Assembly (NCBI GenBank): GCA_965541615.1
Contig: CBEUCJ010000001.1
Span: 195,754-259,753, forward strand
Origin: an uncultured bacterium
GTDB taxonomy: Bacteria; Omnitrophota; Gorgyraeia; Duberdicusellales; CBEUCJ01
Length of the DNA stretch: 64,000 bases
Reading direction: 5' to 3'
Below the pieces are notes generated by a model. The model was not told the DNA's origin, did not search any database, and worked only from the letters and a program-made list of their open reading frames with translations. Below, one piece after another: positions 2,466 to 20,805 of the stretch. The translations under genes were made by a program, and so were the position numbers. Each line of letters opens with the position of its first letter. The first letter of the stretch is position 1.

Positions 2466-2959
2466 GGTTATTTTTTATATTTTTAAGAAAAAAGTTTAGA
2501 ATAAAAGGAGTCTTAGTCTCTTTATTGCTTATGACACTTATAACAACTGTAATCCTAGGAAGAACAAAATGTTACTTGCCTCTTTTAATTTTTCCTTTTA
2601 AATTGTCATCTTGTTTATCATCTTATACTCAGGAAAAAGGAATAAAAAGAGATACTTTCTTAGAAGCGAAGGTATGTTCATTATATAGAATAAAATACAT
2701 CCTTGAGCAAGAGAATATAGACAAAGATAAAAGAGACGAATTATTAAATCTATTTTTTCTTGTCCTTCTTAAATCTCCCTGCCCTATGTATATCAAAGAA
2801 GCTATGGATGCTCTTTCTGTAATTCATAATAAAATAGAAGAAAACAATATAAAAGAGCTAAAGAGGATATTTTATGAGGAGAAGAAAAAAGTTATTGAAG
2901 AATTGCTTCATAGTTATAGGAATCTATCTTTTGTTTTTAGCTGGAGACAGTTATTGTAA
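2456..2959 (+). CDS. hypothetical protein (N-terminal hydrophobic segment)
   Basis: ORF only. Its 3' end overlaps the predicted start of the next gene, so one of the two starts is probably wrong. Confidence 0.2.
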   Translation: MLLRLFFIFLRKKFRIKGVLVSLLLMTLITTVILGRTKCYLPLLIFPFKLSSCLSSYTQEKGIKRDTFLEAKVCSLYRIKYILEQENIDKDKRDELLNLFFLVLLKSPCPMYIKEAMDALSVIHNKIEENNIKELKRIFYEEKKKVIEELLHSYRNLSFVFSWRQLL

Positions 2960-4607
2960 AGAAACTTTTCGAACTCCGTATTTTGATATTACTTTAGACT
3001 CATTTAAAATAGAAAAAGGATTATTAAGCTTTAGTATAGAATCAGTAAAAAAGAAAGTTCCTATCTATGTTAAGTTTACCTCAATAAAAGATCCTACCTA
3101 CCATTTTTTTCTTTTCTACAAGGATAATATAGAAAAATGTTTTTTTTCATTTAGAAAGGTCCCTTTCGTTATTCTGAATAAAAAACGTTATATAATTTAT
3201 TCTTCTATCTATAATCCTTATCATCCATTAGAAAGAAATTTTTTATTCAGTTATCCTTATATTTTAACTTTTGAAACAGATGGCTTTTCTTTATCTTTTT
3301 TTGTATATGTTACTACGAAAAATTTCTCAAGAGAGTTAAAACAGTTATTTGAAAATAATACACTTCTTTCTCATCCTGAAGGTGTAGATATGGTAAGATC
3401 AGTATTTTCTCCTAAGTTGGCAGAATATTTAAAATACGATAAGATGCTTCTTGATACTTTATTATCTCATCCCCATAGTAGAAAGTTAATGTATTCTCGT
3501 AATGCTTCTGAGTTTATTCTCTCTTCCTCTAATGATGGTTGTTTAACCAGAGAGGAGATAAAGAACTTTATAGAAACTTTTAAAGTCGTCCCTACTTCTC
3601 AGATATATCCAAAAAGTGCAGAGATTTTCTATTTCTTAGATGAACGAATACCACCTTTTACTGAGTTTTTAAATGACATACGAAAGATAATCACTCCTTT
3701 TGAAAAAGGATGGATGTGGATGCTTCTTAACAATGTAGATAGTAATACCTTTCTTGTATTGTTGTTGGATAAGAGTTGTATCATTATAAAAGATAATAAA
3801 ATAATAAAAGTATTCAAAGGTTATTCTTTTAAAAAAAACATTGTAATGAAAAACATCCCTTTAGTAATTGTGAACTTTGAAAAAAATTGGTGTTTTATAG
3901 AGAAAGAAATCCCCAAATGGGTGAAGTCAGTTCTTAATGTTTTAGGCTTAACTGGTGATGATGTGAGATTGGTTAAAAGAGAATTTATACCCACTGAAGA
4001 ACTAGAAGTATTGAAAAAGTATCGTGAGATTATAAAAAAATCATCTTTAGAAATGGAAATAACTCGGAATTCTTATTTACTTTTAAAGTTTAGTAAGGAT
4101 GAAAATAGCTTTTATAATAAAAGGAATAAAATGTTTACCTCCCTTATTTATGCTAATCTTATCGATCCTATCGCAAGATATATAGTCAATGAATCTCTAT
4201 GGGAGAGTAAGTTCGATATATATACTATTTTTACTCTATATAGACATTACACTACTGAGGATAGTTGGCTTAGATACATAGTCCATGGAATGAAATTGGA
4301 GGGTATTTACTATACTATTAGTGGAAGTTATAGAAGCAAATTAGGTCATTGTATTACAAGAGCAATTGCTTCAGCAGCCCTCTCTTTAATGATAAATGAA
4401 CCAGTTGATTGTTATCTTATATATGGTTTCGATGATAAGAATAACCTTTTAATGTATCATGCCTTTTGCTGGTTGCCGAGAGAAAAAATACTTTTAGAAA
4501 GAAGCAATCCTATTAGGAACATATTGGTTCCTTGTCTTTCTCCTCTGTTCTATACTTCAGATAAATTGGAGATATTGTGGGAGTTTCATTCTCCTCAACG
4601 AAAATAG
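2874..4607 (+). CDS. secreted transglutaminase-like / papain-fold cysteine peptidase domain protein
   Basis: N-terminal signal-like segment. The C-terminus reads LGHCITRAIASAALSL...YLIYGFDD...MYHAFCWLP, resembling the Cys...His...Asp core of transglutaminase-like domains (G-x-C / HAW-like). Confidence 0.35.
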   Translation: MRRRKKLLKNCFIVIGIYLLFLAGDSYCKETFRTPYFDITLDSFKIEKGLLSFSIESVKKKVPIYVKFTSIKDPTYHFFLFYKDNIEKCFFSFRKVPFVILNKKRYIIYSSIYNPYHPLERNFLFSYPYILTFETDGFSLSFFVYVTTKNFSRELKQLFENNTLLSHPEGVDMVRSVFSPKLAEYLKYDKMLLDTLLSHPHSRKLMYSRNASEFILSSSNDGCLTREEIKNFIETFKVVPTSQIYPKSAEIFYFLDERIPPFTEFLNDIRKIITPFEKGWMWMLLNNVDSNTFLVLLLDKSCIIIKDNKIIKVFKGYSFKKNIVMKNIPLVIVNFEKNWCFIEKEIPKWVKSVLNVLGLTGDDVRLVKREFIPTEELEVLKKYREIIKKSSLEMEITRNSYLLLKFSKDENSFYNKRNKMFTSLIYANLIDPIARYIVNESLWESKFDIYTIFTLYRHYTTEDSWLRYIVHGMKLEGIYYTISGSYRSKLGHCITRAIASAALSLMINEPVDCYLIYGFDDKNNLLMYHAFCWLPREKILLERSNPIRNILVPCLSPLFYTSDKLEILWEFHSPQRK

Positions 4608-4652: not shown

Positions 4653-5852
4653 ATGTCTATTAAATTAATGAGAAGATTGGATTATTGGCTAGGTATTCCT
4701 TTGTGCTTTTTGTTTACTTTTTTTGTCCATTTCTCAAAATTATTCTTATTTAAAGAAAAGAAGAAAGACATCAAAAAAATATTGTTTATTAAACTTTCAG
4801 AAATAGGAAGTATTATTTTAGCTTATCCTTTACTTCAATGCACAAAGAGGAGATACCCTCAAAGTGAAATATTTTTTCTTAGTTTTAAAGAAAATGAAGC
4901 TATTTTGGAGGTATTAAAGATTTCTAAAGATAGGATACTGAGTATAAGAAAAGGTTCTATAAAAGAGTTTATTTTAGATACCTTGAGAATGATAAAAAAA
5001 TTAAGAAAAGAAAATATAGATGTTGTTTTTGATTTAGAGTTTTTTTCTCGTTTTACAGCTATTTTATCTTTTTTAATAAAAGCAAAGAAAAGAGTAGGGT
5101 TTTATCACTATACTTTTGAAGGTCTCTATAGAGGAGAATTATTAACTCATAAAATTCAATACAATCCTTTAATCCACATAAGTAAAGTTTATTTATCTTT
5201 TTTACAAGTGATAGAAAAAGAAAAGAAAAATACACCTGAATTAGAAGAAAAAATCAATGAAGATGATATTAATTTACCGAAATTTGCTGCTTCTGAACAG
5301 GAGAAAAAGGAAATGTTAAATAAATTGAAAGATGCAGGTATAAATGAAAAAGCAAAGTTATTCCTCATTAATTTAGGTGAAGGAAATATCCCTTTAAGAG
5401 AATGGCCTTTAGAAAACTTTATTTCTCTTTCAAAGATGATTTTAGAAGATGATGAAGAAAACTGCATTATTATTGTAGGAAAAAATTTATCTTACAAAGT
5501 AAAAGAGTTTTGCAAAAAATTCTCTGAAAAAAGAGTTATAAATTTAGCAGGAAAGACTACGCTTAAAGAATTATTAACTCTTTTTGAAATTTCTGAAGCT
5601 TTGATATGTTGTGATTGCGGTTTAGCACATTTAGCTTCTTTAACCTCAGTTAAAAAATTTGTAATATTTGGTCCAGAATCTCCGCTGGTTTTTTCTCCTT
5701 TGGGAGAAAATACTTATATAATATATTCAAATCTTCCGTGTTCTCCTTGCCTTTCTATTTTAAACCATAGATGTTCTGCATGTAAGGATAATAAATGTTT
5801 AAAGGTAATTAAATCAGAAGAAGTTTACAGAGTAGTGAAATCTGCTGTATGA
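4653..5852 (+). CDS. glycosyltransferase family 9 (heptosyltransferase-like)
   Basis: KILFIKLSEIGSIILAYPLL (GT9 N-terminal motif); LINLGEGNIPLREWPLENF; CCDCGLAHLASLTSVKKFVIFGPESP (GT9 C-terminal donor-binding motif). Confidence 0.6.
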   Translation: MSIKLMRRLDYWLGIPLCFLFTFFVHFSKLFLFKEKKKDIKKILFIKLSEIGSIILAYPLLQCTKRRYPQSEIFFLSFKENEAILEVLKISKDRILSIRKGSIKEFILDTLRMIKKLRKENIDVVFDLEFFSRFTAILSFLIKAKKRVGFYHYTFEGLYRGELLTHKIQYNPLIHISKVYLSFLQVIEKEKKNTPELEEKINEDDINLPKFAASEQEKKEMLNKLKDAGINEKAKLFLINLGEGNIPLREWPLENFISLSKMILEDDEENCIIIVGKNLSYKVKEFCKKFSEKRVINLAGKTTLKELLTLFEISEALICCDCGLAHLASLTSVKKFVIFGPESPLVFSPLGENTYIIYSNLPCSPCLSILNHRCSACKDNKCLKVIKSEEVYRVVKSAV

Positions 5853-6949: not shown

Positions 6950-8233
6950 ATGGAGAAAAAAATTGTTATTTTAGGAGGAGGATTAGCAGGAGTATCTTTA
7001 GCCTATTTTTTAAAAAATAAAAATTTTCTTTTATTTGAAAAAGAAAAAGAATTAGGAGGTTTGTGTAGGACAAAAAGAAAAAATAATTTTTTATTTGATT
7101 TTTGTGGTCATGTTTTACATTTTAAACATAAAGAAATATTTTATCTAATAAGAAAACTTTTGGGTAAAGATTTATTAAGACATAAAAGAAATTCTGTAGT
7201 ATACTGTTTTAAAAGATTTATTCCTTATCCTTTTCAAGTGAATCTTTATAATCTACCTTTTAAAATTACAAAAGGATGCTTTAGTGATTTTGTAAAAATT
7301 TATTTTGATGGGAAAAAAGAGCCTTCTAATTTTTTAGAATGGTGTTATAAAAATTTTGGAAAAAGCATTACTGATCATTTTATGAGACCTTATAATGAAA
7401 AATTCTGGACTTATCCTTTAGAAAAGTTAAACTGGGAATGGGCAGAAAAAGTAATAATCGTTCCTACACTAAATCAACTTTTAGAAGGTACACTTAAAGA
7501 AAATAAAAAAAACTTAGGATACAATTCTTTTTTCTGGTATCCTAAAAAAGGAGGTATAGATAATCTTATAAAAGCTTTTTTGTTGCATATTGATTCTAAG
7601 AAGATATTTAAAGAATGTGAAGTTGTAAAAATAGACCCTATTTTAAAAAGAGTAGAGTTTAAAAATGGGCTTAAAGAAAAATATGATGTATTGATTTCTA
7701 CTTTACCTTTACCAGACTTACCTAAGATTTTAAACTTTCCAAGTTTTATTTTAAAATTTTTTAAAAAATTGAAATGGATTTCTATTTTTAATCTTAATTT
7801 AGGAGTAAAAGAAAAGTCTAAACAATGGCATTGGATATATTTTCCTGAAAAAGAATTTAGTTTCTATAGAGTAGGTTTTTTTAACAATTTTTTTCAAAAT
7901 TCATTTAATACTTCTCTGTATACAGAGGTTTCCTATTCTCAAAATAAGCCTATAGATAAAAGAAAAATAGTTGGAAAGATAATCAAAGATTTGCTAAAAA
8001 TAGGAATAATTGAAAAAAAAGAAAATATAAAAGAAATCGTTATTAATGATATAAAATATGCTTATCCTGTTTATGATTTGGACTGGAAAGAAGCTCGAGA
8101 AAAAATTTTAAATTATCTTGAAAAGTACAGGATTTTTTGTATAGGGCGATTCGGAAACTGGAAATATATGTCCATGGAGGATGTAATATTAGAAAGTTTG
8201 AAATTTTCAAAATTTATAAATGAGAATTTTTGA
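6950..8233 (+). CDS. glf: FAD-dependent UDP-galactopyranose mutase (Glf) family enzyme
   Basis: N-terminal Rossmann KIVILGGGLAGVSLAYFL...EKEKELGGLCRT. The internal YNEKFW and FWYPKKGGIDNLI segments and the C-terminal IFCIGRFGNWKYMSMEDVILESL each parallel the corresponding Glf regions (YTEKQW, GGY, GRLAEYKYYDMHQVI). Confidence 0.5.
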   Translation: MEKKIVILGGGLAGVSLAYFLKNKNFLLFEKEKELGGLCRTKRKNNFLFDFCGHVLHFKHKEIFYLIRKLLGKDLLRHKRNSVVYCFKRFIPYPFQVNLYNLPFKITKGCFSDFVKIYFDGKKEPSNFLEWCYKNFGKSITDHFMRPYNEKFWTYPLEKLNWEWAEKVIIVPTLNQLLEGTLKENKKNLGYNSFFWYPKKGGIDNLIKAFLLHIDSKKIFKECEVVKIDPILKRVEFKNGLKEKYDVLISTLPLPDLPKILNFPSFILKFFKKLKWISIFNLNLGVKEKSKQWHWIYFPEKEFSFYRVGFFNNFFQNSFNTSLYTEVSYSQNKPIDKRKIVGKIIKDLLKIGIIEKKENIKEIVINDIKYAYPVYDLDWKEAREKILNYLEKYRIFCIGRFGNWKYMSMEDVILESLKFSKFINENF

Positions 8234-9002
8234 AAGATTTAAAAAGATTTATTTTTACCGTAATATTCTAAAAGAACTGACACTAAAGAATTTAAAAATA
8301 AAGTATTCTGGTTCTATGTTAGGTATATGGTGGGCAATAATTACTCCTTTAATTTTGGCAATAAGTATTAATTTTGTTTTTAATGTTGTTTTTAATATCG
8401 GTATCAAAAACTTTACTCTTTTTGCTCTTTCTGGAATCTTACCTTGGATATTTTTCTCTAATGCGTTATTCGAAACTACAAATTCTTTTGTAATTAATTC
8501 TCAAATTTTAAAACAGGCAATTTTTCCTCATGAGTTTATTCCTCTTTCTTCTATTTTAAGTAATTTCCTTAATTTTCTTATTGGATTTTTTGCTTTGCTA
8601 CCTTTATTTATTGTTTTCAATCATAAAATATTATTAATCTCCCCTTTTTTATTTTTAATATTACTTCTTCATCTTCTTTTTTTGATTGGTTTAGGATTTT
8701 TACTCTCTGTTTTAAATGTTTTTTTGCGTGATGTATCTTGTTTTTTATCTATAGTATTAATGATTTGGTTTTGGGTTACTCCAATATTTTATCCCATTGA
8801 TTTTTTAAAATTTCCTTACCGTTTAGTATGTATTTTAAATCCTTTAACTTATTACATAATTTCCTATCAGAAAATTCTTTTTAAAGGAGAATCTCTTTCT
8901 TTTTCAGAGATATTTATAATGCTATTTATTTCTTTACTTTTCTTTATTGGAGGTTATTCTTTTTTTATTAAAAAAGAAAAACTTTTGTTAAAAAGAATAT
9001 GA
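8220..9002 (+). CDS. wzm: ABC-2 type polysaccharide export permease (Wzm/TagG family)
   Basis: ILKELTLKNLKIKYSGSMLGIWWAIITPL is the ABC-2 permease signature; six or more hydrophobic helices; translationally coupled to the downstream ATPase. Confidence 0.65.
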   Translation: MRIFERFKKIYFYRNILKELTLKNLKIKYSGSMLGIWWAIITPLILAISINFVFNVVFNIGIKNFTLFALSGILPWIFFSNALFETTNSFVINSQILKQAIFPHEFIPLSSILSNFLNFLIGFFALLPLFIVFNHKILLISPFLFLILLLHLLFLIGLGFLLSVLNVFLRDVSCFLSIVLMIWFWVTPIFYPIDFLKFPYRLVCILNPLTYYIISYQKILFKGESLSFSEIFIMLFISLLFFIGGYSFFIKKEKLLLKRI

Positions 9003-12000
9003 TTGTGGTAGAACTCAAAAATGTTTGGGAAAAATATAGTATAAAATTTGTCTCTGAAAAGAAAATTTGGCGAGAAGAAATTTGGGCATTAAAAGACATT
9101 AATCTTAAAGTTAAGAAAGGAGAAGTTTTAGGAATAATTGGAGCTAATGGAGCAGGAAAGACTACTCTTTTAAAACTCATCGCTGGAATGCTTATTCCTG
9201 ATAGAGGTGAGGTTATTGTAAAAGGAAAAGTAGCTACAATTATGGAATTGGGAGCAGGTTTTAATCCTGAATTTACAGGCAAAGAGAATATAATTCTTAA
9301 TGCTCACACTTATGGATTAGATGAAAATAGTTTAAATGAAAGATTAGAAAAAATTATAGAATTTTCTGGGTTAGGAAAATTTATTTACGCTCCTATAAAG
9401 TATTACTCTCAGGGTATGTTTTTAAGGTTAGCTTTCTCATTAGCTATTCATGCTGAACCAGATATTCTTCTTATAGATGATATTTTAGCTGTGGGGGACA
9501 AAGAAGCTCAAGAAAAATGTATTAATAAAATATTTGAATTAAAAAAGGAAAGAAAGACTATTATTTTGGTAAGTCATGATATGGAAATGATAAGCAGATT
9601 ATGTGATAGAGCAATTTTTTTAGAGAAAGGTAAGATCATTTATGAAGGAGTACCTCAAAAAGCAGTTTTTAAATATCTAGAAACTGTAGGAAATAAAGAA
9701 GGTATTGGTGTTTTGGAAGAGAATGATTTAAGGATCGTTTTTAACAATGGAAGAATCAATATAAGCTGGAGAGATTTTCCTATTACAAAAAGAAACAGCT
9801 GTATTTTTTATTTTGATTCTTTAGTTAATAGCCAGATTTCTTTTTTAAATCTTTTTTGGAGAGTAAAAAAAATAGATTCTAATAAGATTTTAGCTGAAGG
9901 TAGAGATCATAAAGATTTTCTTTTACAAATTTGGAATATCCAATTACAAGATAATTGTTTACATTTAGAAATAGAAATACTCAGTTCAACTGGAGAATCT
10001 CATTTAGGTCTTTCACTTTTTTCTGAATACAAAAAGTGGATAACTTTGAATGAAGAAAAAGAGTTTCCTCCTTTTATTTCTAAAACAGAATATCAAGATT
10101 TAGGTTTAAAAATCTCTCCTGAAGGAATAATAGGTATTAAATCAAAAAATATTCAAGATTTTCCTTATCTTATTTTTGAAAGAAAAGATAATAGTGACCA
10201 GATTAAGCTTTTTAATACAGGTTATAAAGAAGAAGCTCGCATTGTTCAGTTGCCTTTAAATAATAATAAACTTATTGTAGATATCAAAGTATTTTCTGAA
10301 GAAAATGACTTCGAAAAATATATTAAAGATAAAAAAGATAAATTGAAATCTAAACTCCTCTCTCAAAGAACTCTAACCTCAAAAAACTTAAAAGTATATG
10401 CAGACACAGAAAAAAAAGCAGTAAGGATTTATTACAAAGATTTAGAGATCACTAAAGCATTTGGTTTGCACACTTCTTTTTTAATAGATAACAATTGGTA
10501 TGGAAATTCAGAAGCTGAGTGGCAAGTAGAAAAGAAAAACTCTATGCTTATTTTGCAATTTAGTTGGAAAAAGTTGAGAATTAATCAGAGATGGAAACTC
10601 ACTCTTAAAGAAAATTCTATTTTCTGGCAAATAGAATCTGAAATAAAAAATTTGCCCAACCTTAAATTATTCAAATTCGGTATATTTTTATCTGAAAAAT
10701 ACAATACTTTTTTCTCTGGAGCTCAACAAGAGAATTTTCCTGAAGAATTTAATTCATGGCGGGATATGGAATTAAATGATTTCCAAGCTGGATTGATAGG
10801 AGTAAGAAAAAGAGAAAACTATCCTGCTATTGTTCTAGAAAATAAAAATAAACTTCAGGCTTTTATCCAAAATAGTAATAACAATTTAAGCTCCCGTGTT
10901 TTACAGTTAGGCACTTTTCTATCTCCTAATCAAAAAAAATTTTCTTTTTCTACACAACTTAAATTTTTAGAAGAAGAGAATCTTATTGAAGACTATATTA
11001 AAGAAGAACAGCAAAAACTCCTCTCTCAAAGAACTCTAACCTCAAAAAACTTAAAAGTATATGCAGACACAGAAAAAAAAGCAGTAAGGATTTATTATAA
11101 AGATTTAGAAATTACGAAAAACAGAGGGTTATATACAGCGATATGTTTAAAAAATAAAAGATGGATTCATTCTTTTGACTGTTCTTGGCAGATAGAAAAA
11201 AAATCTGAAGAATTGATCTTAATTGTAAAATATAAAAAAATTCTTTCAGAAGTTTGGCGTTTAAGTTGCCAAAATAATATTTTAGAAATTAAAATTGAGC
11301 TAAATCCAATGGCGCCCTTTGTTTTGCTTAATAGAGATTTGAGATTAGAGATATCTGATGAGTATGAAAAATGGATTACTGCTTATGAGGGAGGAGATTT
11401 TTTAAATCAACATTATGGCGGTATAATTCCTGTAAGACTAAAAGATAATAAGGTTTCTAAAATAATGCTGAAAACAAATGATGAGATTTCAGCTCCAACT
11501 TTGTATTTTGAGACTTTATGTCCACATTATGGACAAATTTTGGGAATATATAAAAACAAAAAAGATAAATATATTTGTCTTAATTTTTCTTCTATGATTT
11601 CAAAAAAAGAAAATCGATTTTATCCTGAAAAATATATTTGTTTTTTATCTAAAATTATTTTTAATGAGAATATTGAATTAAAAGAGACTGAATTTGAAGA
11701 AAAAGTTGAGATAAGTAAAGATAATTTAAGGTTTATTTTTGATAGGGGGAAAAGTCAAATATTTTGGAAAGAAGAAAAAATAACCCAAGCTTTAGGAGTT
11801 TATACATCTTTACGTTCTTCTGGTATATGGTATGATTCTTATCAAGCAAAGTGGGAGATAATTAAAAAAGAAAAAGATAGGTTGATTTTACGTGGTGATT
11901 GGATATACCTTCCTATTTCACAGATTTGGAATATAGAACTGAGAGAAAAAAATTTAATATACTGGAAAGTAGATATAGAAGTTCATGAAGAAATTGATTT

Positions 12001-12346
12001 AGAGATAGAGCAAGCAGGTATTATGCTTTCTTTAAAATATGAAAATTGGAAAATACCCAGATTAATCCAAAATAAATTTCTTGATGAATTCCCACAAGAT
12101 TATGATATCTTGCCTTTTAGGTTTTGGTATGGAAAATCAAATAAAATAGAAGTTTTTAGTGAAAAAAAAGATTTTCCAAAATTATTGTTTGAATGTAAAT
12201 CTGAAGAAGAATCTTTTAGAGCTGTAGTAGAAAATAGTGATTATTTTTACAAAGCAAGATTAATTCAATATCAAAGATCAAATATCCAAAAAAGATTTCC
12301 AGGTAAATATTCTTATTTTGAAGGAGTAATTAAAATTGAAAGTTAA
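8999..12346 (+). CDS. wzt: polysaccharide ABC exporter ATP-binding protein (Wzt/TagH family) with ~850-aa C-terminal extension made of at least 4 tandem copies of a ~200-aa repeated domain
   Basis: Walker A GIIGANGAGKTTLL; signature YSQGMFLRLAF; Walker B ILLIDDILAVGD (DD, not the usual DE). The extension carries repeats of the type xVRIxxxxxxIxWxxxEITKxxGLxT...W...S...W.I.KK....LIL...W..L..SQIWN..L.E.N.I.W.VDIE. Confidence 0.7.
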   Translation: MIVVELKNVWEKYSIKFVSEKKIWREEIWALKDINLKVKKGEVLGIIGANGAGKTTLLKLIAGMLIPDRGEVIVKGKVATIMELGAGFNPEFTGKENIILNAHTYGLDENSLNERLEKIIEFSGLGKFIYAPIKYYSQGMFLRLAFSLAIHAEPDILLIDDILAVGDKEAQEKCINKIFELKKERKTIILVSHDMEMISRLCDRAIFLEKGKIIYEGVPQKAVFKYLETVGNKEGIGVLEENDLRIVFNNGRINISWRDFPITKRNSCIFYFDSLVNSQISFLNLFWRVKKIDSNKILAEGRDHKDFLLQIWNIQLQDNCLHLEIEILSSTGESHLGLSLFSEYKKWITLNEEKEFPPFISKTEYQDLGLKISPEGIIGIKSKNIQDFPYLIFERKDNSDQIKLFNTGYKEEARIVQLPLNNNKLIVDIKVFSEENDFEKYIKDKKDKLKSKLLSQRTLTSKNLKVYADTEKKAVRIYYKDLEITKAFGLHTSFLIDNNWYGNSEAEWQVEKKNSMLILQFSWKKLRINQRWKLTLKENSIFWQIESEIKNLPNLKLFKFGIFLSEKYNTFFSGAQQENFPEEFNSWRDMELNDFQAGLIGVRKRENYPAIVLENKNKLQAFIQNSNNNLSSRVLQLGTFLSPNQKKFSFSTQLKFLEEENLIEDYIKEEQQKLLSQRTLTSKNLKVYADTEKKAVRIYYKDLEITKNRGLYTAICLKNKRWIHSFDCSWQIEKKSEELILIVKYKKILSEVWRLSCQNNILEIKIELNPMAPFVLLNRDLRLEISDEYEKWITAYEGGDFLNQHYGGIIPVRLKDNKVSKIMLKTNDEISAPTLYFETLCPHYGQILGIYKNKKDKYICLNFSSMISKKENRFYPEKYICFLSKIIFNENIELKETEFEEKVEISKDNLRFIFDRGKSQIFWKEEKITQALGVYTSLRSSGIWYDSYQAKWEIIKKEKDRLILRGDWIYLPISQIWNIELREKNLIYWKVDIEVHEEIDLEIEQAGIMLSLKYENWKIPRLIQNKFLDEFPQDYDILPFRFWYGKSNKIEVFSEKKDFPKLLFECKSEEESFRAVVENSDYFYKARLIQYQRSNIQKRFPGKYSYFEGVIKIES
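10352..10447 (+). repeat. near-identical ~96-nt direct repeat, copy 1 (inside the wzt extension)
   Basis: aaactcctctctcaaagaactctaacctcaaaaaacttaaaagtatatgcagacacagaaaaaaaagcagtaaggatttatta... recurs at 11018..11113 with only a few mismatches near the 3' end. It encodes KLLSQRTLTSKNLKVYADTEKKAVRIYYKDLEITK twice. Confidence 0.85.
11018..11113 (+). repeat. near-identical ~96-nt direct repeat, copy 2
   Basis: See copy 1. This marks a recent internal duplication of one domain repeat in wzt. Confidence 0.85.
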
Positions 12347-14543
12347 TGAGATTATTAAAGGCAGAGTAAGAATAATTTTTACTCAAAAAGGTGTAAGTAT
12401 TTTCTGGAATAATATTGAGATTACAAAAAATGTCGGCCTAAATGTAGCAATTAATACTGCAGGTTTATGGACAGATTCTTCAAAGGCAGATTGGAAGATA
12501 ATAGAAAAAAAAGGAGATAGTGTTGTTTTGAAAATAATATTTAAAGAGTTACCTCTTTCTCAAATTTGGAATTTAAAGTTCTTTACAGAGAAAGAAATAG
12601 ATTGGCAGATAGATACACAGATAGAGGAATGGATCTTTATAGATGAAGTAAGAATTTTATGCTTACTCCAACCTTATTATAAAAGTTGGATATGTGATTA
12701 TAAAGAAGGAGATTTTGTTAAATTGAGCAGAAATTGGCATGATCTATACATTAGTTCATCTTCATCTTCTTTGGTAGGAGCAAGATTTTGTGTTCAAGAA
12801 AAGTTTTTACCTTCTTTTACAATGGAATCTTTGGATAAAGAATTCTTCTCATTTGTCCAAGTATCTCCCCAGATAATAGGTGCATATGTTATTGGATTTA
12901 GAAGTAAAGATATGAAAGAGTTTTTACCAGGGTATCATCATACTTTTTCAGGAAAACTTAGTCTATTTGAAGAAGAGAAAATTTTGGATGAAAAATTAGA
13001 AATACCCCGCAGTTTAAAAATGGAAAAAGATTTAAGAAAAAAAGGATTTAAAAAGGAAAAGTTAAAAGTTTTACTTTTAAATCTTCCTTGGCAAAGAGAA
13101 GGAAAATGGGGAGTAAGAGCAGGTTCTCGCTGGCCACATATTAAAGATGATTCTGAAGGGAATTATTTACCTTTCCCCTTTTTTTTAGCTTATGCAACGA
13201 GTCTTTTAAAAAAACATAATATCGATGCACATATAATCGATGCCATTGCAGAAAAAATAAATTTTGAGGAACTTTTAAAAAGAATTATAAAAGAAGATTA
13301 CAACATTTTTGTAATTGAGACTTCTGTTCCTTCTTTCTATGATGATTTAAAAATGGCAGAAAAACTTTCTTCTTTAGGAAAGATTATTCTTTGTGGACCA
13401 AATGTGTTAATTTACAGTGAAGAATTTTTAAAGAATACTCCTTTTGTTGATTATGTTATTTATGGAGAATATGAATTTACACTTTTAAATTTAATAAAAG
13501 CATTAAAAGAAAAAAAAGATTTAAGAAAAATTAAAGGGATCATCTTCAGAGAAAATTCAGATATAATAAAAACTCCACCTCAAGAATTGATAGATATAAA
13601 CTTACTTCCTTGGCCAGAAAGAGAAGAACTCCCTATTTATAACTATTGGGATATGCCAGGAAATATTCCCTATCCTTCAGTTCAGATGCTTTCTTCACGA
13701 GGATGTGTTTTTTCTTGTAATTTCTGTCTTTGGCCTCAAGTTTTGTTTATGAAAAAATACAGAGCAAGAGATATAAAAGATGTTGTAGATGAAATGCAAT
13801 ATGTAGTAGAAAAATTTGGGTTTAAATCTATTTATTTTGATGACGATACTTTCAATATAGGAAAAGAGAGAGTTTTGAATTTATGTAAAGAAATTATAAA
13901 AAGAGGATTAAATAAAATTCCTTGGGCAATAATGGCAAAACCAGATTTGATGGATGAGGAATTATTAGATAACTTAAAAAAAGCAGGTTTATTCTCTATA
14001 AAATATGGAGTGGAAAATGCTGATCAAGAGATTGTAAATAGATGCGGTAAAAATCTTAATTTAAAAAAAGCAGAAAAAATGATTAAATACACAAAATCTT
14101 TAGGAATAAAAATTCATCTTACTTTTAGCTTTGGACTCGAAGGTGAGACAAAGGAAACTATAAAAAGAACCATTGATTATGCACTAGAACTTGATCCAGA
14201 TTCAGTTCAATTCTCTATAATTACTCCTTTCCCTGGAACAAAACTTTATGAGGATTTAGAGAGAGAAGGAAGAATTTTAACAAAGAATTGGTCTCTTTAT
14301 GATGGGCATTACAGTTGTGTATTTAAACCTAAAAACTTATCACCAAAGGATTTAGAAGAAGCAAAACAATATGCTTACCGAGTATGGAAAGATTTTCAAA
14401 GAAAGAAAAGAGGATTTATTGGAGATTTGAAAAGATTTTTAAATTACGCAAAAGAAAGAGGATTAAGTTATGCTTTTTATAAAAGTTTTGACTATTTTAA
14501 ATATCTCCTGTTTTACAGAAAAAAGTTTCTAGGAAAAATATAA
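12336..14543 (+). CDS. B12-binding (class B) radical SAM enzyme with an N-terminal Wzt-extension-type repeat domain
   Basis: N-terminus RVRIIFTQKGVSIFWNNIEITKNVGLNVAI...LPLSQIWNLKF matches the wzt C-terminal repeats. B12-binding segment KVLLLNLPWQREGKWG...NIFVIETSVPSF. rSAM core SSRGCVFSCNFCLWPQ (CxxxCxxC) followed by IYFDDDTF. TTG start 11 nt inside the wzt 3' end. Confidence 0.65.
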   Translation: MKVNEIIKGRVRIIFTQKGVSIFWNNIEITKNVGLNVAINTAGLWTDSSKADWKIIEKKGDSVVLKIIFKELPLSQIWNLKFFTEKEIDWQIDTQIEEWIFIDEVRILCLLQPYYKSWICDYKEGDFVKLSRNWHDLYISSSSSSLVGARFCVQEKFLPSFTMESLDKEFFSFVQVSPQIIGAYVIGFRSKDMKEFLPGYHHTFSGKLSLFEEEKILDEKLEIPRSLKMEKDLRKKGFKKEKLKVLLLNLPWQREGKWGVRAGSRWPHIKDDSEGNYLPFPFFLAYATSLLKKHNIDAHIIDAIAEKINFEELLKRIIKEDYNIFVIETSVPSFYDDLKMAEKLSSLGKIILCGPNVLIYSEEFLKNTPFVDYVIYGEYEFTLLNLIKALKEKKDLRKIKGIIFRENSDIIKTPPQELIDINLLPWPEREELPIYNYWDMPGNIPYPSVQMLSSRGCVFSCNFCLWPQVLFMKKYRARDIKDVVDEMQYVVEKFGFKSIYFDDDTFNIGKERVLNLCKEIIKRGLNKIPWAIMAKPDLMDEELLDNLKKAGLFSIKYGVENADQEIVNRCGKNLNLKKAEKMIKYTKSLGIKIHLTFSFGLEGETKETIKRTIDYALELDPDSVQFSIITPFPGTKLYEDLEREGRILTKNWSLYDGHYSCVFKPKNLSPKDLEEAKQYAYRVWKDFQRKKRGFIGDLKRFLNYAKERGLSYAFYKSFDYFKYLLFYRKKFLGKI

Positions 14544-14554
14544 AAAATGCCTAT

Positions 14555-17500
14555 ATGGAAAAAATTCTTGAAGGAATAGATAAGGAAAAAGTATTAACTG
14601 GTCCACGAGTAGTCCAAATCGATTTAACAGATAAATGTAACTTAAACTGTATTTTTTGCTGGGTCCACTCACCTTTGTTCGATAAAAAAAAGATTTTTCC
14701 AGAAGGATTGAAAGAATTACCTTTTAAATTAGTTAAAAATTTAATAAAGGAATTAAAAGATTTAGGAACAGAAGAAATTATTCTTTCAGGATCAGGTGAA
14801 CCTTTTATGTATGATAAAATTTTAGAAGTTATAGATTTAATAAAATCTTATGGTTTTTATTTGAATATTATTACCAATGGTTTACTTATAAATGATAAGA
14901 TAGCAAAATTTTTAGTTGAGAAAAAAGTAGATCTTCTTACAGTAAGTGTATCTGCAGCTAAACCTTCTACATATTTAAAACTGCATCCTCCAGCTACTCA
15001 TGATGATTTTTTAAAACTTAAAAACAATTTAAAAAAAATATCTAATTATAAAAATGAAATTGTGACGATTTATCCTCATACAAAAATTTATAATGTAATC
15101 TGTAATAAAAATTACAGAGAGATTGAAGAGATGATAGATTTTGCAAAAGAAGTCGATGCAGATTCTGTTGAATTTCAAACAATAGATATAATTGAAAATA
15201 AAACAGAATTTTTAGCTTTAGGTAATAAAGAAAAAGAAGAAATTTTTGAAATATTTGAAAGAATAAGAAAAAGAAAAGATTTAATAGATTATGAAATTCC
15301 AAAAGAAAAAAAAATAAAAGATTTTATAAAAGAAGAATTTTCAGATTTTGGAAAGATATGGAAAAATTATAAAGAAAATTTTCAACTTACAAGATATGCA
15401 AAAGAACTTATATGCCCTAAAGGTTTTAATGGAGAAAGAAAAATAATTTTTCATACATATTCTCCTTATGCAACAAGAGTTTCTGATTTTTGGTATAAGT
15501 TTAATTTCAACAATAACTGTAAAGAATGTGAGTTGAAAAGAAAATGTTTCAATAAGAAAGAGGAAGTTGGAGAGGTTGATGTGAAGCTGTTGAATCTTTT
15601 AAATGTGGAAAGTTTTTTAAGAAAATTAGTTAACCTGGATAATCAGAATTTTACTTATAGAAAAGATATTGATAGTATCCCCTGTTATATAGGCTGGTAT
15701 TATGCACGAATTTTGACAAATGCAGATGTAATTCCTTGCTGTAAAGCTTATAAATTTGCTTTAGGTAATTTATACAAAAAATCATTTAGCCAAATTTGGA
15801 AATCAGAAAAATATAATGAATTTAGAATAAAAGCTAAAAATTTGTCAAAAAAAGACAAATATTTTTCTTTAATAAACTGTATAAAAGAATGTGATAATTG
15901 GGGAATGAATATGGAAATTCACAAAAAATTTATGGAATATAAAAAAGAAAAGGATATAAGAGAAAAATCATTTTCTTTAGTAATAAATGCTGATAAATTT
16001 TTTGAAGGGAATTTTAACAAAGGCAATCATGAGTTTGGTAAAGGGTTAATAATAGATGGAGGAGAAAAAAGAGGGCATGCATTATATTCTATAACTATAA
16101 AAGAAAATGGAAGATATGAATTATGGTCAAAATACGCTTCCTATCAAATAAGACCAGTTAAAATTTTTATTGATGGAAATTTAATAAAAGAAGATGGACT
16201 TTCAAAAATTACTGGAGGCTGGAATAAAGTTTTTTCAAAATGGTTTAAGGAAGGAGAAATCTATCTTAAAGAAGGAAAGCATATTTTAAAAATTGTAGCA
16301 GATAACTGCATTCCTCATATAGAGAAATTTGCCTTTTTAAAAAAAGAAGGAAAGATTAATTTATTTAATATCAAAACTTCTTATCTTGAAAAATTTAAAG
16401 ATATTCTTAAAAAAGAAGGTTTAAAAAAAGCTATTTATAAATTATTTTATAATCTTACTCCTTCAAATTTAAAAGACAGATATTTGGAGATTTTAGGAAT
16501 TTTAGATAAAGAATATGCTTATAAAGGCCCTTTTCATGTTCAGATAGATTTAACTAATGATTGTAATAGTAATTGCATTGCCTGTTGGTGCAATTCTCCT
16601 TTATTTAAAAAACCAAGATTAACACCTGAAGAAAAAAAAGAATATCTTCCCTTTTCTTTAGTTAAAGAAGTTTTAGATGAATTGAAAGCAATGCATACTA
16701 CAGAGATTTACTATTCAGGAGGTGGAGAACCTTTTATGCATCCTAATATTTTAGAAATTTTAGAGTATACAAAAAAGAAAGGATTTATAACTCATGTAAA
16801 TACAAATTTCACTTTAGTTAATAAAGATGTAGCTGATAAATTAATAGATATAGGTGTAGATTTTTTAACAGTAAGTGTATGGGCAGGGACTCCTCAAGTT
16901 TATAAAAAAGTCCATTTAAGAGATGAAGAGGTTTTTTTTAGAGTAAAAGATACTCTCCTGTACCTTAACAAAAGAAAAAAGCAAAAATACAACAAACCTT
17001 TAATTAAAATTTATTCTGTAATTTTTAATATGAATTATCATGAGATAGAAGAAATAATTAAATTTGCAGAAGATACTTTATCTGAGTCTATAGAATTCAC
17101 TTTAGTCGATACTATACCAGGAGTTACTGATGTATTGCGACTAAATGATAAGCAGTATGAAGAGTTAATTTATAAATTTGAAAAGATTAAAAGAAAATTA
17201 GATAAAAATAATAGACTTCCCTCAGGTTTACTTTTATTTCAATTTGAACAGTTTTTGCGAAGGATTTCTCAAAAAAACAATGTAAAAGAAGCAAAGTATG
17301 ATAAGAATATAATTGATAGTATGCCTTGTTATATTGGTTGGCTTTTTGCAAGAATTATCCCTAATGGAGAGGTTCATCCCTGTCTTAAGGCTCATCGTAT
17401 ACCTAGTGGTTCTTTATATTTAAATAGATTTTTTGAAATATGGAATTCAGATAAACAAAAATATTTCAGAAAAAAGACTTTAGTCTATGAAAAAAAGGAT

Positions 17501-18793
17501 CCCTTTTTTAGATTAATAGGAAATGACCCTTTTACAAAAGAAGCAGGTTGTTATAAAGTTTGTGATGATATTGGAAGAAACATGTGGATGCATTCAAGAA
17601 TAAGTATGTTAACTTATCCTGAAAAATTATTATTAAAAACAGCAGCAGCTGGCATAAAAATTTTAAGAAAAATAAAGCCTAAAAAAGAAGAATATAAAAT
17701 GTATCATAAAGACCCACTTATTGCAGGTATTCTTCATGGAAGAAAAGCATTTAGAGGTCCTAATCAGGTAGTCATTGATATTACAAATAAATGTAATTTA
17801 AATTGTATTGTTTGCTGGCTTTACTCACCTTTTTCAAAAGTGGATAAAGATTGGCTTAATGAAGAGATTTCCAAAGATACACTTTTTAGATTAATAAAAG
17901 ATTTAAAAGATATTCATACAGAACGTATAAGATTTACAGGTGGAGGAGAACCTTTTATGTGCAAGTATTTAATAGAGGCGATTGAATTTGCACGGAAAAA
18001 TGGTTTATTAGTGTCTATTACTACAAATTTTGGGTTAGTTTCAAAAAAAGATATAAAACGTTTAGTCGATTTAGAGGTTGATGAATTATGCATCAGTATT
18101 TGGGCAAAGAACAAAGAAACTTATTTAAAAACTCATCCATCTGTTTCAGAAAAATATTTTGAGAATTTAAAAGAAAATCTTTTATATCTTAAAGAGATTA
18201 AAAGAAAAAAGCCTCGAGTTACATTTGCAAATGTAATAATGAATTTGAATTATAAAGAATTTGATGAAATGTATGAATTTGCAAAAGAATATGGTGCTGA
18301 TGCAATTTATTTTACTCTTCCTGATGTTTTTAGAGATGAAATTAAAAGGTTCTTATTAAGTGATAAAGAGAAAGAATTTTTAATTAGAAAAGCAGAGAAG
18401 ATGAAAATGAAAGCAAAAAAAGACAAAATCGAACTTGAATTTTTTGAAGGGTTTATAAGAAGATTATCTAAAAAAGAAGAATTTACAAAAGGAGAGTATG
18501 ATAAAGATGATATAGATAAAATCCCCTGTTATGTAGGATGGATATTCTCACGCATTTTAGCAGATGGAAATGTGGTTCCTTGTTGTAGAGCTGTTAATAA
18601 AATAATGGGAAATGTAAATAAGACCTCTTTTAAAGATATATGGTATTCTCAAAAATATAATGAATTTAGAGCTAAAGCGAAGTTTTTAAAGAAAACACAC
18701 CCCTTTTTTAAAGACATAGGATGTATAAAAGAATGTGATAATTTTATGCATAATTTAGAAATTCATAGAAAGTTGAATAATGTGTTAATATAA
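14555..18793 (+). CDS. 1412-aa protein with three tandem radical SAM / SPASM(twitch)-type modules
   Basis: Module 1: IDLTDKCNLNCIFCW...GSGEPFM, then IPCYIGWYYARILTNADVIPCCKAY...CIKECDNW. Module 2: IDLTNDCNSNCIACWC...GGGEPFM, then MPCYIGWLFARIIPNGEVHPCLKAH...GCYKVCDD. Module 3: IDITNKCNLNCIVCW...GGGEPFM, then IPCYVGWIFSRILADGNVVPCCRAV...CIKECDNF. A Cys-free ~130-aa beta-rich insert (GKGLIIDGGEKRGHALYSITIKENGRYELW...ILKIVADNC) lies between modules 1 and 2. Confidence 0.7.
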   Translation: MEKILEGIDKEKVLTGPRVVQIDLTDKCNLNCIFCWVHSPLFDKKKIFPEGLKELPFKLVKNLIKELKDLGTEEIILSGSGEPFMYDKILEVIDLIKSYGFYLNIITNGLLINDKIAKFLVEKKVDLLTVSVSAAKPSTYLKLHPPATHDDFLKLKNNLKKISNYKNEIVTIYPHTKIYNVICNKNYREIEEMIDFAKEVDADSVEFQTIDIIENKTEFLALGNKEKEEIFEIFERIRKRKDLIDYEIPKEKKIKDFIKEEFSDFGKIWKNYKENFQLTRYAKELICPKGFNGERKIIFHTYSPYATRVSDFWYKFNFNNNCKECELKRKCFNKKEEVGEVDVKLLNLLNVESFLRKLVNLDNQNFTYRKDIDSIPCYIGWYYARILTNADVIPCCKAYKFALGNLYKKSFSQIWKSEKYNEFRIKAKNLSKKDKYFSLINCIKECDNWGMNMEIHKKFMEYKKEKDIREKSFSLVINADKFFEGNFNKGNHEFGKGLIIDGGEKRGHALYSITIKENGRYELWSKYASYQIRPVKIFIDGNLIKEDGLSKITGGWNKVFSKWFKEGEIYLKEGKHILKIVADNCIPHIEKFAFLKKEGKINLFNIKTSYLEKFKDILKKEGLKKAIYKLFYNLTPSNLKDRYLEILGILDKEYAYKGPFHVQIDLTNDCNSNCIACWCNSPLFKKPRLTPEEKKEYLPFSLVKEVLDELKAMHTTEIYYSGGGEPFMHPNILEILEYTKKKGFITHVNTNFTLVNKDVADKLIDIGVDFLTVSVWAGTPQVYKKVHLRDEEVFFRVKDTLLYLNKRKKQKYNKPLIKIYSVIFNMNYHEIEEIIKFAEDTLSESIEFTLVDTIPGVTDVLRLNDKQYEELIYKFEKIKRKLDKNNRLPSGLLLFQFEQFLRRISQKNNVKEAKYDKNIIDSMPCYIGWLFARIIPNGEVHPCLKAHRIPSGSLYLNRFFEIWNSDKQKYFRKKTLVYEKKDPFFRLIGNDPFTKEAGCYKVCDDIGRNMWMHSRISMLTYPEKLLLKTAAAGIKILRKIKPKKEEYKMYHKDPLIAGILHGRKAFRGPNQVVIDITNKCNLNCIVCWLYSPFSKVDKDWLNEEISKDTLFRLIKDLKDIHTERIRFTGGGEPFMCKYLIEAIEFARKNGLLVSITTNFGLVSKKDIKRLVDLEVDELCISIWAKNKETYLKTHPSVSEKYFENLKENLLYLKEIKRKKPRVTFANVIMNLNYKEFDEMYEFAKEYGADAIYFTLPDVFRDEIKRFLLSDKEKEFLIRKAEKMKMKAKKDKIELEFFEGFIRRLSKKEEFTKGEYDKDDIDKIPCYVGWIFSRILADGNVVPCCRAVNKIMGNVNKTSFKDIWYSQKYNEFRAKAKFLKKTHPFFKDIGCIKECDNFMHNLEIHRKLNNVLI

Positions 18794-18881
18794 ATTAGGA
18801 GATCAGTTTTTGGATGAAAAACTTTATTTTTCTATTTTCAAAGCAAAGTTTTTACTAAAGGCAGAGAGTTTAGAGAATTAA

Positions 18882-19582
18882 ATGAAGTTGGAAATAGTAT
18901 TACCTGTATATAATGAAGAAGAGATTTTAGAAAAAAATGTAATAAGAGTCAAAAATTTTTTTAAGAAGCATAACTTCAAATTTATAATCTCTATTGTAGA
19001 TAATGGATCCACAGATAACACTTATAAAATTGCTAAAAATTTAGCAGATAAAAATGATAATATATTTGCTTTTAAATTGAAAAAAGGGGTAGAGGGAGAG
19101 CATTAAAATTTAGAATATTAAATTCTTCTTGTGCTATTTTGGGGTATATGGATATAGATTTATCTGCAGACCTTTATGATTTTTTGATATTGTATAGAGA
19201 AATTCAAAATGGGTATGATATAGTAATAGGTTCAAGATTGTTACCTGCTTCTTCTGTAAAAAGATCGATTCTCAGAAAATTACTTTCTCGAGTTTATAGC
19301 AAGATGGTAAGGAGAGTTTTGAATTTACCTTTTTTTGATTATCAATGTGGTTTTAAGTTATTTAGAAGAGAGAAAATCGTCTCACTAATGCCATTGATAA
19401 AAAATAATAATTGGTTTTTCGATACTGAGCTCATATTCTATGCATATAGAAAAAATTTAAAAATAAGAGAGATTCCTATAAGGTGGAAAGAAAGAAAATA
19501 TGGAAAGGTAAAGTTATTTCCTACGATTATTGAAGACATTAAAGGAATAATGAGATTGAGATTTAATAAAGAGTATTATTAG
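18882..19582 (+). pseudogene. GT2 glycosyltransferase (DPM1/polyprenol-phosphate-sugar synthase-like) split by a 1-nt frameshift in an A6G4 homopolymer (19080-19089)
   Basis: ORF 18882-19106 gives IVLPVYNEEE...SIVDNGSTDNT...FKLKKGVEGEH*. The next frame continues KRGRGRALKFRILNSSCAILGYMDIDLSAD...VIGSRL (the GT2 R-x-x-G-x-G-x-A-L ... DADL ... GSR motifs) into ORF 19139-19582. The split could be real (pseudogene or phase variation) or a homopolymer sequencing error. Confidence 0.55.
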
Positions 19583-19707: not shown

Positions 19708-20805
19708 TTGAAATACTCCTATTATATTAGAACATTATTAAATTATATAATTTTATATCCAAAACTTATTACTTTAAAATCCATCTATCGACTTTCTCTT
19801 TTATTATTTGGTAAAAATTATATCTCAGAACCTCTTACCATAAATTTTCTTATTACTCACAGATGTAATCTTAAATGCAAAATGTGTAGTTTTTTTGGAA
19901 GAAAGACTTATGAAACTAAAGAAAGAGATATAGAATTTGAGGATGTTAGAAAAATATTAATGAGTAGTAAAAAAATAAAGCCGATTATTTCTTTTGGTGG
20001 TGGAGAGCCATTTTTAAGAGAAGATTTTATTGATATATTAAAATTTGCTAAACATGAATGTAATTTAAAAGTGGTAGTGATTACAAATGGCTCTTTGCTT
20101 ACTGATAAGATAATAAAAACTATTGATAAACTAAACCTAATAGATTATTTTATAATATCTATACATGGTCTTTTTAATTTGCATGATGAAATAGTGGGAC
20201 TAAAGGGAGCTTTTGATAGAGTTGTTTCTAATATAAGAAAATTCTCTAAGAAACTTAAATCGAAGGTGATCGTTTCCTCAGTATTAATGAGAGAGAATAT
20301 ATTCTTTTTTGATGATTTTATAAGATTCTTTTTAAATGAAGGTATAAAAAAAATAAAAATAGAGCATTTGAACTTCCTAACAGAAGAAGAAACTAATCTT
20401 TATCAAAAAGAAAATATTTTTTTACCATTTACATTTATAAGAAAAGATTTATTCGAGAAAGAATTTATTGAAAAAGCTTGGTATACACTCGTTAATCTTA
20501 AAAGAAAATATCGTTCCAAACTCATTATTAAACCACCTCTCTCTCGAAAACAGTTTTATGAATGGTATGAAAAAAAAATTGGGAATAGCAATGAATTTTA
20601 TAGGCTTAGATGTGTTTTTATAAAACATTCTTTATTTATCGATCCACAAGGAGAAGTAATTCCATGCCAATTCCTTCGTAATTGTAAGATAGGAAATACC
20701 AAAAACAATGATCTTCTTAAATTGTGGAATTCTGCAATATATAAAAATATAAGAAAAATAATAAACAAAAGTAATTTTCCTGTTTGTTTTAGATGTTGTA
20801 AATAG
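19708..20805 (+). CDS. radical SAM / SPASM-domain protein
   Basis: INFLITHRCNLKCKMCSFFG (CxxxCxxC); FGGGEPF; C-terminal IDPQGEVIPCQFLRNCKIGN...FPVCFRCCK (SPASM-like Cys cluster). Confidence 0.65.
   Translation: MKYSYYIRTLLNYIILYPKLITLKSIYRLSLLLFGKNYISEPLTINFLITHRCNLKCKMCSFFGRKTYETKERDIEFEDVRKILMSSKKIKPIISFGGGEPFLREDFIDILKFAKHECNLKVVVITNGSLLTDKIIKTIDKLNLIDYFIISIHGLFNLHDEIVGLKGAFDRVVSNIRKFSKKLKSKVIVSSVLMRENIFFFDDFIRFFLNEGIKKIKIEHLNFLTEEETNLYQKENIFLPFTFIRKDLFEKEFIEKAWYTLVNLKRKYRSKLIIKPPLSRKQFYEWYEKKIGNSNEFYRLRCVFIKHSLFIDPQGEVIPCQFLRNCKIGNTKNNDLLKLWNSAIYKNIRKIINKSNFPVCFRCCK

Follow-up and report, generated by a model that had tools for sequence, protein, structure and literature searches.

An undescribed tandem domain family common to Wzt-type exporters and radical-SAM, GT39 and sulfatase-family enzymes of Omnitrophota

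The characterised carbohydrate-binding domain (CBD) of Wzt, the ATPase of ATP-binding cassette (ABC) exporters for surface polysaccharides, is a single jelly-roll, which dimerises through exchange of its C-terminal strands and recognises the polymer's terminal cap (PMC9445017). Here we describe a locus in a 64,000-nucleotide stretch of DNA (the window; contig CBEUCJ010000001.1, positions 195,754 to 259,753) from an uncultured bacterium of the Omnitrophota, in which a Wzt protein bears four tandem copies of a different repeat and a fifth copy opens the protein encoded next to it, a B12-binding radical S-adenosylmethionine (rSAM) enzyme. Set beside the Wzt CBDs of E. coli O9a, R. terrigena and A. 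aeolicus, the repeat is alike in its position after the ATPase domain and a hinge helix, in its setting downstream of Wzm and among glycan genes, in outpacing the ATPase domain in evolution, and in its presumed role of selecting lipid-linked polymer for export; it differs in being a supersandwich of ~200 amino acids (aa), present in one to six tandem copies, without sequence or fold match to those CBDs, and attached to tailoring enzymes as well. The pairing of an exporter with a modifying enzyme encoded alongside recalls WbdD and Wzt of E. coli O9a, but that pair has no domain in common, whereas here enzyme and exporter bear homologous modules. Compared with the supersandwich domains of glycoside hydrolases, polysaccharide lyases, glycan phosphorylases, OpgG/OpgD and aldose 1-epimerases, the repeat shows 3-15% identity, has no Pfam match and lacks the mutarotase catalytic residues. 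A further parallel, an analogy only, is the recognition element (RRE) of ribosomally synthesised and post-translationally modified peptide (RiPP) pathways, a small, PqqD-like winged-helix domain that binds leader peptides. On rSAM/SPASM maturases it follows the same logic, that of a non-catalytic N-terminal substrate-recognition domain common to the enzymes of a pathway, but the repeat, a beta-supersandwich, is large and belongs to a locus for glycan export.

The searchable literature contains no description of the repeat domain or of Omnitrophota Wzt systems, and no report of a supersandwich appended to the ATPase of an ABC exporter or to a radical-SAM enzyme. The repeat is an undescribed domain family, arranged in tandem and common to an exporter and to radical-SAM, glycosyltransferase family 39 (GT39) and sulfatase-family enzymes. 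While the characterised Wzt reads a cap with one jelly-roll, a whole phylum here uses tandem arrays of a different domain; moreover, to our knowledge, radical-SAM enzymes have rarely been linked to polysaccharide assembly. The family offers a handle on the coupling of export to tailoring in glycan pathways that depend on ABC transporters, on the targets of the dense rSAM clusters of Omnitrophota, and on the cell surface of these uncultivated, ultra-small bacteria, and it merits a family model, as ~880 residues of this Wzt are unannotated in Pfam and NCBIfam.

Five repeats on two adjacent proteins, and their fold

The genes, domains and repeats concerned are as follows.

8220-9002, + strand: Wzm, ABC-2 permease (Pfam ABC2_membrane, 3e-11)
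8999-12346, + strand: Wzt, 1115 aa; ABC ATPase domain, then four repeats
8999-9709, + strand: Wzt nucleotide-binding domain, aa 1-237 (ABC_tran, 2e-20)
9710-10393, + strand: repeat W1, Wzt aa 238-465; hidden Markov model (HMM) score 259 bits
10394-11056, + strand: repeat W2, Wzt aa 466-686; HMM score 288 bits
11060-11695, + strand: repeat W3, Wzt aa 688-899; HMM score 224 bits
11705-12343, + strand: repeat W4, C-terminal and most conserved copy, Wzt aa 903-1115 (HMM boundary at aa 1113)
12336-14543, + strand: B12-radical-SAM gene with the fifth repeat, 735 aa, TTG start
12342-12971, + strand: repeat R1, rSAM protein aa 3-212
12975-13040, + strand: alpha-helical linker after R1, rSAM protein aa 214-235 (DSSP helix in the R1 model)
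13041-14543, + strand: B12-binding radical-SAM catalytic part (B12 domain aa 284-384, rSAM core aa 453-615)

The homology of the five units is evident from pairwise BLAST, in which most pairs score between E = 1e-5 and 2e-23 (W2-W3 1.8e-23, R1-W4 1.8e-21, R1-W2 9e-20, with W1-R1 weakest at 0.033), and from an HMM of the five copies, which finds exactly five matches, at 224-303 bits per domain, in the six-frame translation of the 64 kb. The initial annotation, which had proposed one repeat occurring four times on Wzt and once on the adjacent rSAM protein, is thereby upheld, although its boundaries need revision. The C-terminal extension of Wzt spans 880 aa rather than ~850, in units of ~215-230 aa; the fourth copy, drawn as ending near aa 1000, runs to the C-terminus at aa 1115; and the rSAM copy, placed at aa 10-100, is a full domain of aa 3-212 whose well-conserved N-terminal half corresponds to that stretch. 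Identity among the window copies is only 24-33%. In their alignment nine columns are invariant, mainly hydrophobic or aromatic, and charged tails of the EEENxxEDYIK type follow W1, W2 and R1.

The ATPase domain has intact Walker A (GANGAGKT, aa 48), signature (YSQG, aa 136) and Walker B (ILLID, aa 156) motifs, and its closest solved structure is the O-antigen Wzt of A. aeolicus (8dku/7k2t, E 5.6e-69), followed by TarH/TagH and then mycobacterial RfbE. The leading NCBIfam matches of the protein, TagH and galactan Wzt, fall under their full-length cut-offs, as does the best match of the permease, the galactan export permease Wzm/RfbD. Judged by its ATPase domain and by the adjacent Wzm gene, an order kept in relatives, the protein is best assigned as the Wzt of a polysaccharide or teichoic-acid ABC-2 exporter. 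The R1-bearing protein has the CxxxCxxC motif as CVFSCNFC (aa 457-464, nucleotides 13704-13727) and matches Pfam Radical_SAM at 2.6e-21 and the B12-binding domain at 1.4e-5 (25.4 bits, against a cut-off of 32.1); its homologues carry PF02310, and these features point to a class B (B12-binding) radical-SAM enzyme. HpnJ and BchE models align to it over aa 246-682. Its best NCBIfam match is HpnJ, a hopanoid-associated rSAM enzyme that acts on a sugar moiety, but with 264.9 bits against a cut-off of 577.6 the protein was rejected as an HpnJ equivalog. The TTG start of the rSAM gene gives an 11-nucleotide overlap with the 3' end of the Wzt gene (12336-12346), Wzm and Wzt overlap by 4 nucleotides, and comparable overlaps occur in related loci, an arrangement that suggests translational coupling.

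A predicted model and fold comparison describe the repeat as an all-beta, galactose-mutarotase-like supersandwich of ~200 aa, with closest structures that include aldose 1-epimerases, OpgD/OpgG and a GH174 fucanase. This fold places it in the galactose-mutarotase-like superfamily, outside the catalytic families of that superfamily. Pfam and NCBIfam scans of the whole Wzt and rSAM proteins gave nothing over the repeat region, neither Wzt_C nor Aldose_epim, and the repeat profile found only a chance-level match (8wab, E 0.47) among PDB sequences. The canonical Wzt-C domain (Wzt_C; the jelly-roll of 2R5O/6O14) was rejected as an identity for the repeat, given the lack of a Wzt_C match, a different fold, and an alignment to A. 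aeolicus Wzt that covers only aa 15-241 of the query, stopping at the end of the nucleotide-binding domain; characterised Wzt CBDs were also absent from the fold matches listed. The initial annotation had expected a beta-sandwich, as in a carbohydrate-binding module; structure prediction returns one, of a fold other than Wzt-C.

Over 393 near-full-length copies, conservation falls on T34, G38, W49, S52, W57, Q80, W82, Y119, W122, F132, P165, N184 and R192, residues that are mostly aromatic or polar, a pattern compatible with a sugar-binding surface, and no His or Glu is conserved family-wide. That the repeat is itself an enzyme acting on the polymer, whether mutarotase-, epimerase-, hydrolase- or lyase-like, is suggested by the company it keeps in fold comparison, yet we consider it very improbable. 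The His/Glu pair of aldose 1-epimerases has no counterpart in the family, which argues against mutarotase-type catalysis and, with the missing Pfam match, led us to reject an aldose 1-epimerase; the window copies share no more than nine invariant columns, mostly hydrophobic or aromatic ones; and four to six diverged tandem copies would be atypical of a catalytic domain.

Distribution, gene order and divergence of the copies

An exhaustive search of 1.84 billion representative proteins with the five-copy profile (E <= 1e-3) matched 580 protein clusters, 205 of them at E <= 1e-30; a word-indexed homologue search with repeat alignments returned 18 and 11 fragments only. Every profile match with a source name comes from Candidatus Omnitrophota/Omnitrophica. 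Related loci number 25 (L001-L025), five from exact-protein look-ups and twenty from a genome scan that was seeded with close C-terminal copies and covers that lineage only; by their titles as recorded, 13 of the twenty scanned loci belong to Omnitrophota, and the other seven lie in assemblies produced by automatic binning, under the titles Planctomycetia, Planctomycetales, Mariniplasma or 'uncultured bacterium'. The repeat, as far as these source names indicate, is specific to Omnitrophota.

Among 165 retrieved proteins, 87 combine an ABC ATPase domain with two to six repeats, distributed as follows.

ABC + 2 repeats: 20 of 165
ABC + 3 repeats (commonest): 41 of 165
ABC + 4 repeats: 14 of 165
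ABC + 5 repeats: 11 of 165
ABC + 6 repeats: 1 of 165

A Wzt with a single repeat exists in a related locus. Multiple tandem C-terminal domains, which the initial annotation had considered unusual in themselves, are so when set against characterised Wzt proteins, yet within this family they are the rule. Most of the remaining proteins contain nothing but repeats, probably as fragments of genes cut off by short contigs. The others extend the repeat to enzymes: it precedes or follows a B12-rSAM domain (repeat + B12-rSAM; B12-rSAM + repeats), it stands in two or three copies before an rSAM-SPASM module, and it occurs in two or three C-terminal copies on membrane glycosyltransferases of the GT39/PMT_2 type and in two copies on a sulfatase-family enzyme (P0140, contig L027). 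Two 'Rosetta-stone' proteins unite exporter and enzyme in a single polypeptide, P0034 with ABC, five repeats and rSAM-SPASM, and P0128 with ABC, two repeats and rSAM-SPASM.

Two of these fusions bear on the side of the membrane at which the repeat acts. The sulfatase-family protein has one N-terminal hydrophobic segment resembling a signal peptide or anchor, and its gene sits within a glycan locus, after genes for SPASM rSAMs, GT4, GT2 and CysD/N-like proteins. A GT39 fusion takes the place that ordinary PMT_2 genes have in another locus, both coming after the same unknown gene of 207 aa; a crude hydropathy count gives these fusions 8-13 segments and is too coarse to fix their topology, and C-terminal domains of GT39 (GT-C) enzymes are normally periplasmic. 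Taken together, the two fusion types make it seem that the module works at either face of the membrane, as would suit a ligand that passes through it. On contig L027 the P0140 gene also adjoins CysD/CysN-like sulfate-activation genes, a second sulfatase-family gene and a phosphodiesterase gene; there are hints that the polymer may, in some lineages, bear sulfate or phosphate-linked substituents.

Gene order around the exporter is well kept. About 20 loci show the succession of flavoprotein, Wzm, Wzt with repeats, repeat-B12-rSAM and three SPASM rSAM units (fused or separate), the flavoprotein homologue lying immediately upstream of Wzm in most, and in 20 of the 22 loci with a visible downstream gene, the gene after Wzt begins with a repeat. 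Homologues of the rSAM protein number over 1200; for the best 120, identity is 46-88% and the alignment covers 73-100% of the query, in nearly every case at least 91%. The Wzt and repeat-bearing rSAM pair noticed in the initial annotation is thus conserved throughout the phylum, as the synteny of related loci attests.

Such constancy invites a structural interpretation, in which the repeat would be a protein-protein docking or scaffold module whose copies bind each other or form a rigid arm, so that rSAM enzymes are assembled on the exporter without direct glycan binding. The single polypeptides P0034 and P0128, the strictly adjacent and overlapping genes for Wzt and the repeat-rSAM protein, the helical linkers between copies, the conservation of copies position by position (below), as expected in a fixed assembly, and the dimerisation of known Wzt CBDs (PMC9445017) all accord with it. 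We nonetheless hold it to be rather unlikely: a sulfatase fusion with a signal- or anchor-like segment and the normally periplasmic C-termini of GT39 enzymes could not dock on a cytoplasmic Wzt arm, a copy number varying from one to six is hard to square with a fixed docking geometry, and the fold and the aromatic and polar conservation suit sugar binding.

The copies are not interchangeable. The nearest relatives of W1 are the first copies of other Wzt proteins, those of W2 mostly second copies, those of W3 penultimate copies and those of W4 C-terminal copies, while R1 forms a lineage of its own with copies on other B12-rSAM proteins. Their rates of change also differ, as seen from identity to five distant orthologues.

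Wzt ATPase domain: 65-70% identity
W1: 36-39% identity
W2: 36-45% identity
W3: 35-37% identity
W4: 49-53% identity
R1: 40-46% identity
rSAM core: 54-65% identity

The repeats (35-53%) therefore change faster than the ATPase domain or the rSAM core; serotype-specific Wzt CBDs likewise evolve fast. Orthology of copies in the same position means that the array is old and its members differentiated, and it rules out a recent local duplication as the origin of the array. It also weakens the earlier proposal that the exporter reads the same epitope as the rSAM enzyme with four-fold avidity, since an old, differentiated array, whose copies are only 24-33% identical, whose W4 is far more conserved than the rest and whose counterpart R1 belongs to its own lineage, is a poor fit to four equivalent sites for one epitope.

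Superimposed on this old divergence is a more local process, visible in two tracts of 105 nucleotides (KLLSQRTLTSKNLKVYADTEKKAVRIYYKDLEITK) that encode, in W2 and in W3, the linker and the first strands.

10352-10456, + strand: 105-nucleotide tract, start of W2
11015-11119, + strand: 105-nucleotide partner tract, start of W3

These agree at 101 of 105 positions (96%) within repeats of ~33% aa identity. In the orthologous locus L001, which is 88% identical, the corresponding tracts (4678-4782 and 5338-5442) match each other at 103 of 105 positions and the window tracts at 89-91 of 105. Identity within a locus being higher than that between loci, the tracts indicate concerted evolution by ongoing gene conversion.

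A proposed glycan-recognition module and the points against it

The reading that we favour, though at only a little better than even, is that the repeat is a non-catalytic glycan-recognition module common to the exporter and to tailoring enzymes. It draws on the carbohydrate-associated fold, the aromatic and polar conservation, the position on Wzt that is occupied elsewhere by the canonical CBD, an evolution faster than that of the catalytic domains, as in serotype-specific CBDs, and the presence of the repeat on enzymes of the same loci, apparently on both sides of the membrane, including exporter-rSAM single polypeptides. The glycan-binding module of the initial annotation survives in this form, on the strength of an all-beta, carbohydrate-associated fold found on the exporter and on enzymes from the same glycan loci, but shorn of its identity with the Wzt-C jelly-roll. 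In mechanistic terms, the tandem array on Wzt would replace the canonical jelly-roll CBD, capture the lipid-linked polymer of this locus at the cytoplasmic face and pass it to the Wzm/Wzt channel; R1 would tether the adjacent B12-radical-SAM enzyme to the same polymer, as the module elsewhere would tether SPASM rSAMs, GT39 glycosyltransferases and the sulfatase-family enzyme, and export and tailoring would thereby be coupled.

On this proposal the ligand would be a glycan, exporter and enzymes would bind the same polymer, and the differentiated copies would presumably read different features of it, perhaps a conserved end or anchor for the C-terminal copy, itself conserved, and the variable chain for the faster-evolving inner ones. 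The suggestion in the initial annotation that the B12-rSAM enzyme adds the chain-terminating cap read by Wzt finds neither direct support nor contradiction here; HpnJ, its closest named relative, acts on a sugar moiety, but at a score far under the cut-off. With the repeat also present on SPASM rSAMs, GT39 enzymes and a sulfatase-family protein, it has more the look of a module for general targeting to one polymer than of a reader of a terminal cap. A bolder version, which we entertain only tentatively, envisages an Omnitrophota-specific surface glycan or glycolipid, heavily modified through radical chemistry, to which one dedicated module addresses the cytoplasmic rSAMs, Wzt and the external GT39 and sulfatase-family enzymes, with the copies on Wzt forming a multi-site checkpoint that releases only fully tailored polymer; if true, the module would be the polysaccharide counterpart of the RRE.

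Several observations weigh against glycan recognition. The galactose-mutarotase-like fold is also found in the P1 domain of YidC and in the PBCV-1 capsid protein P19, neither with demonstrated sugar binding. The rSAM lineage of the repeat lacks the family-wide Arg192, with Tyr in its place in the window R1, and has near-invariant D103, E104 and R106 that are specific to it, so that this lineage and the Wzt copies may bind different ligands. The periplasmic side assigned to the GT39-attached repeats is presumed from general GT-C topology. Finally, the locus is unusually rich in rSAM/SPASM enzymes, with about ten rSAM domains in all, and such enzymes are more often associated with the maturation of peptides than with the tailoring of glycans.

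This last point leads to the alternative of a non-glycan substrate, either a ribosomal peptide or protein matured by the rSAM/SPASM enzymes and exported, or a hopanoid-like lipid. The abundance of rSAM domains apart, a neighbouring protein of 1331 aa falls just short of the RiPP C-methyltransferase model TIGR03975 (277.8 bits, cut-off 281.85), the R1 enzyme has hopanoid-associated HpnJ as its best NCBIfam match, and GT39/PMT enzymes include protein O-mannosyltransferases. Yet O-antigen Wzt and teichoic-acid TagH/TarH are the nearest relatives of the ATPase domain, genes for GT9, GT4, GT2 and GT39 enzymes surround the pump here and in relatives, all rSAM family matches fall under curated cut-offs, no gene for a precursor peptide is known, none having been sought, and HpnJ itself acts on sugar; a non-glycan substrate is in our judgement quite unlikely.

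The surrounding gene cluster

The window has a G+C content of ~27%, and its 4.6-27.7 kb region is a glycan-type cluster on the + strand that includes GT9 and GT4 glycosyltransferase genes. Besides the genes already listed, it comprises the following.

6950-8233, + strand: flavoprotein, FAD/NAD-binding oxidoreductase (amine-oxidase-like, PRK07208-like; Pfam Amino_oxidase, NAD_binding_8)
14555-18793, + strand: triple radical-SAM/SPASM fusion, 1412 aa; three Radical_SAM and three SPASM stretches
19708-20805 and 20815-24810, + strand: further radical-SAM genes
25030-26490, + strand: GT39/PMT_2 gene; a GT4 gene also lies in this part of the cluster

The flavoprotein matches an NCBIfam PRK07208-type 'hypothetical protein' model at 160 bits, under the cut-off. 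The rSAM modules are fused or split variably among loci: the triple SPASM protein of the window corresponds to three genes in L004 and L006, and the genes at 19708-20805 and 20815-24810 seem to be represented in L001 by one open reading frame, which runs off the contig end at 1702 aa. Between the SPASM genes, a GT2 gene (18880-19582) is broken by a frameshift near 19080-19090, at an A7G4 run (GAAAAAAGGGG); the run may be a site of phase variation or of a sequencing error, or the gene may be a pseudogene. Its motifs resemble those of polyprenyl-phosphate sugar synthases. Enzymes of this kind normally supply donors to GT-C/GT39 enzymes, for example the PMT_2 enzyme encoded at 25030-26490.

Upstream of the cluster, an open reading frame of 577 aa (2874-4607) gave no match in Pfam or NCBIfam. 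Immediately downstream of the cluster lies a gene for a secretion ATPase of the type II secretion/type IV pilus type (28154-29851, with T2SSE and MshEN domains), followed at 29856-31544 by a second open reading frame of similar size.

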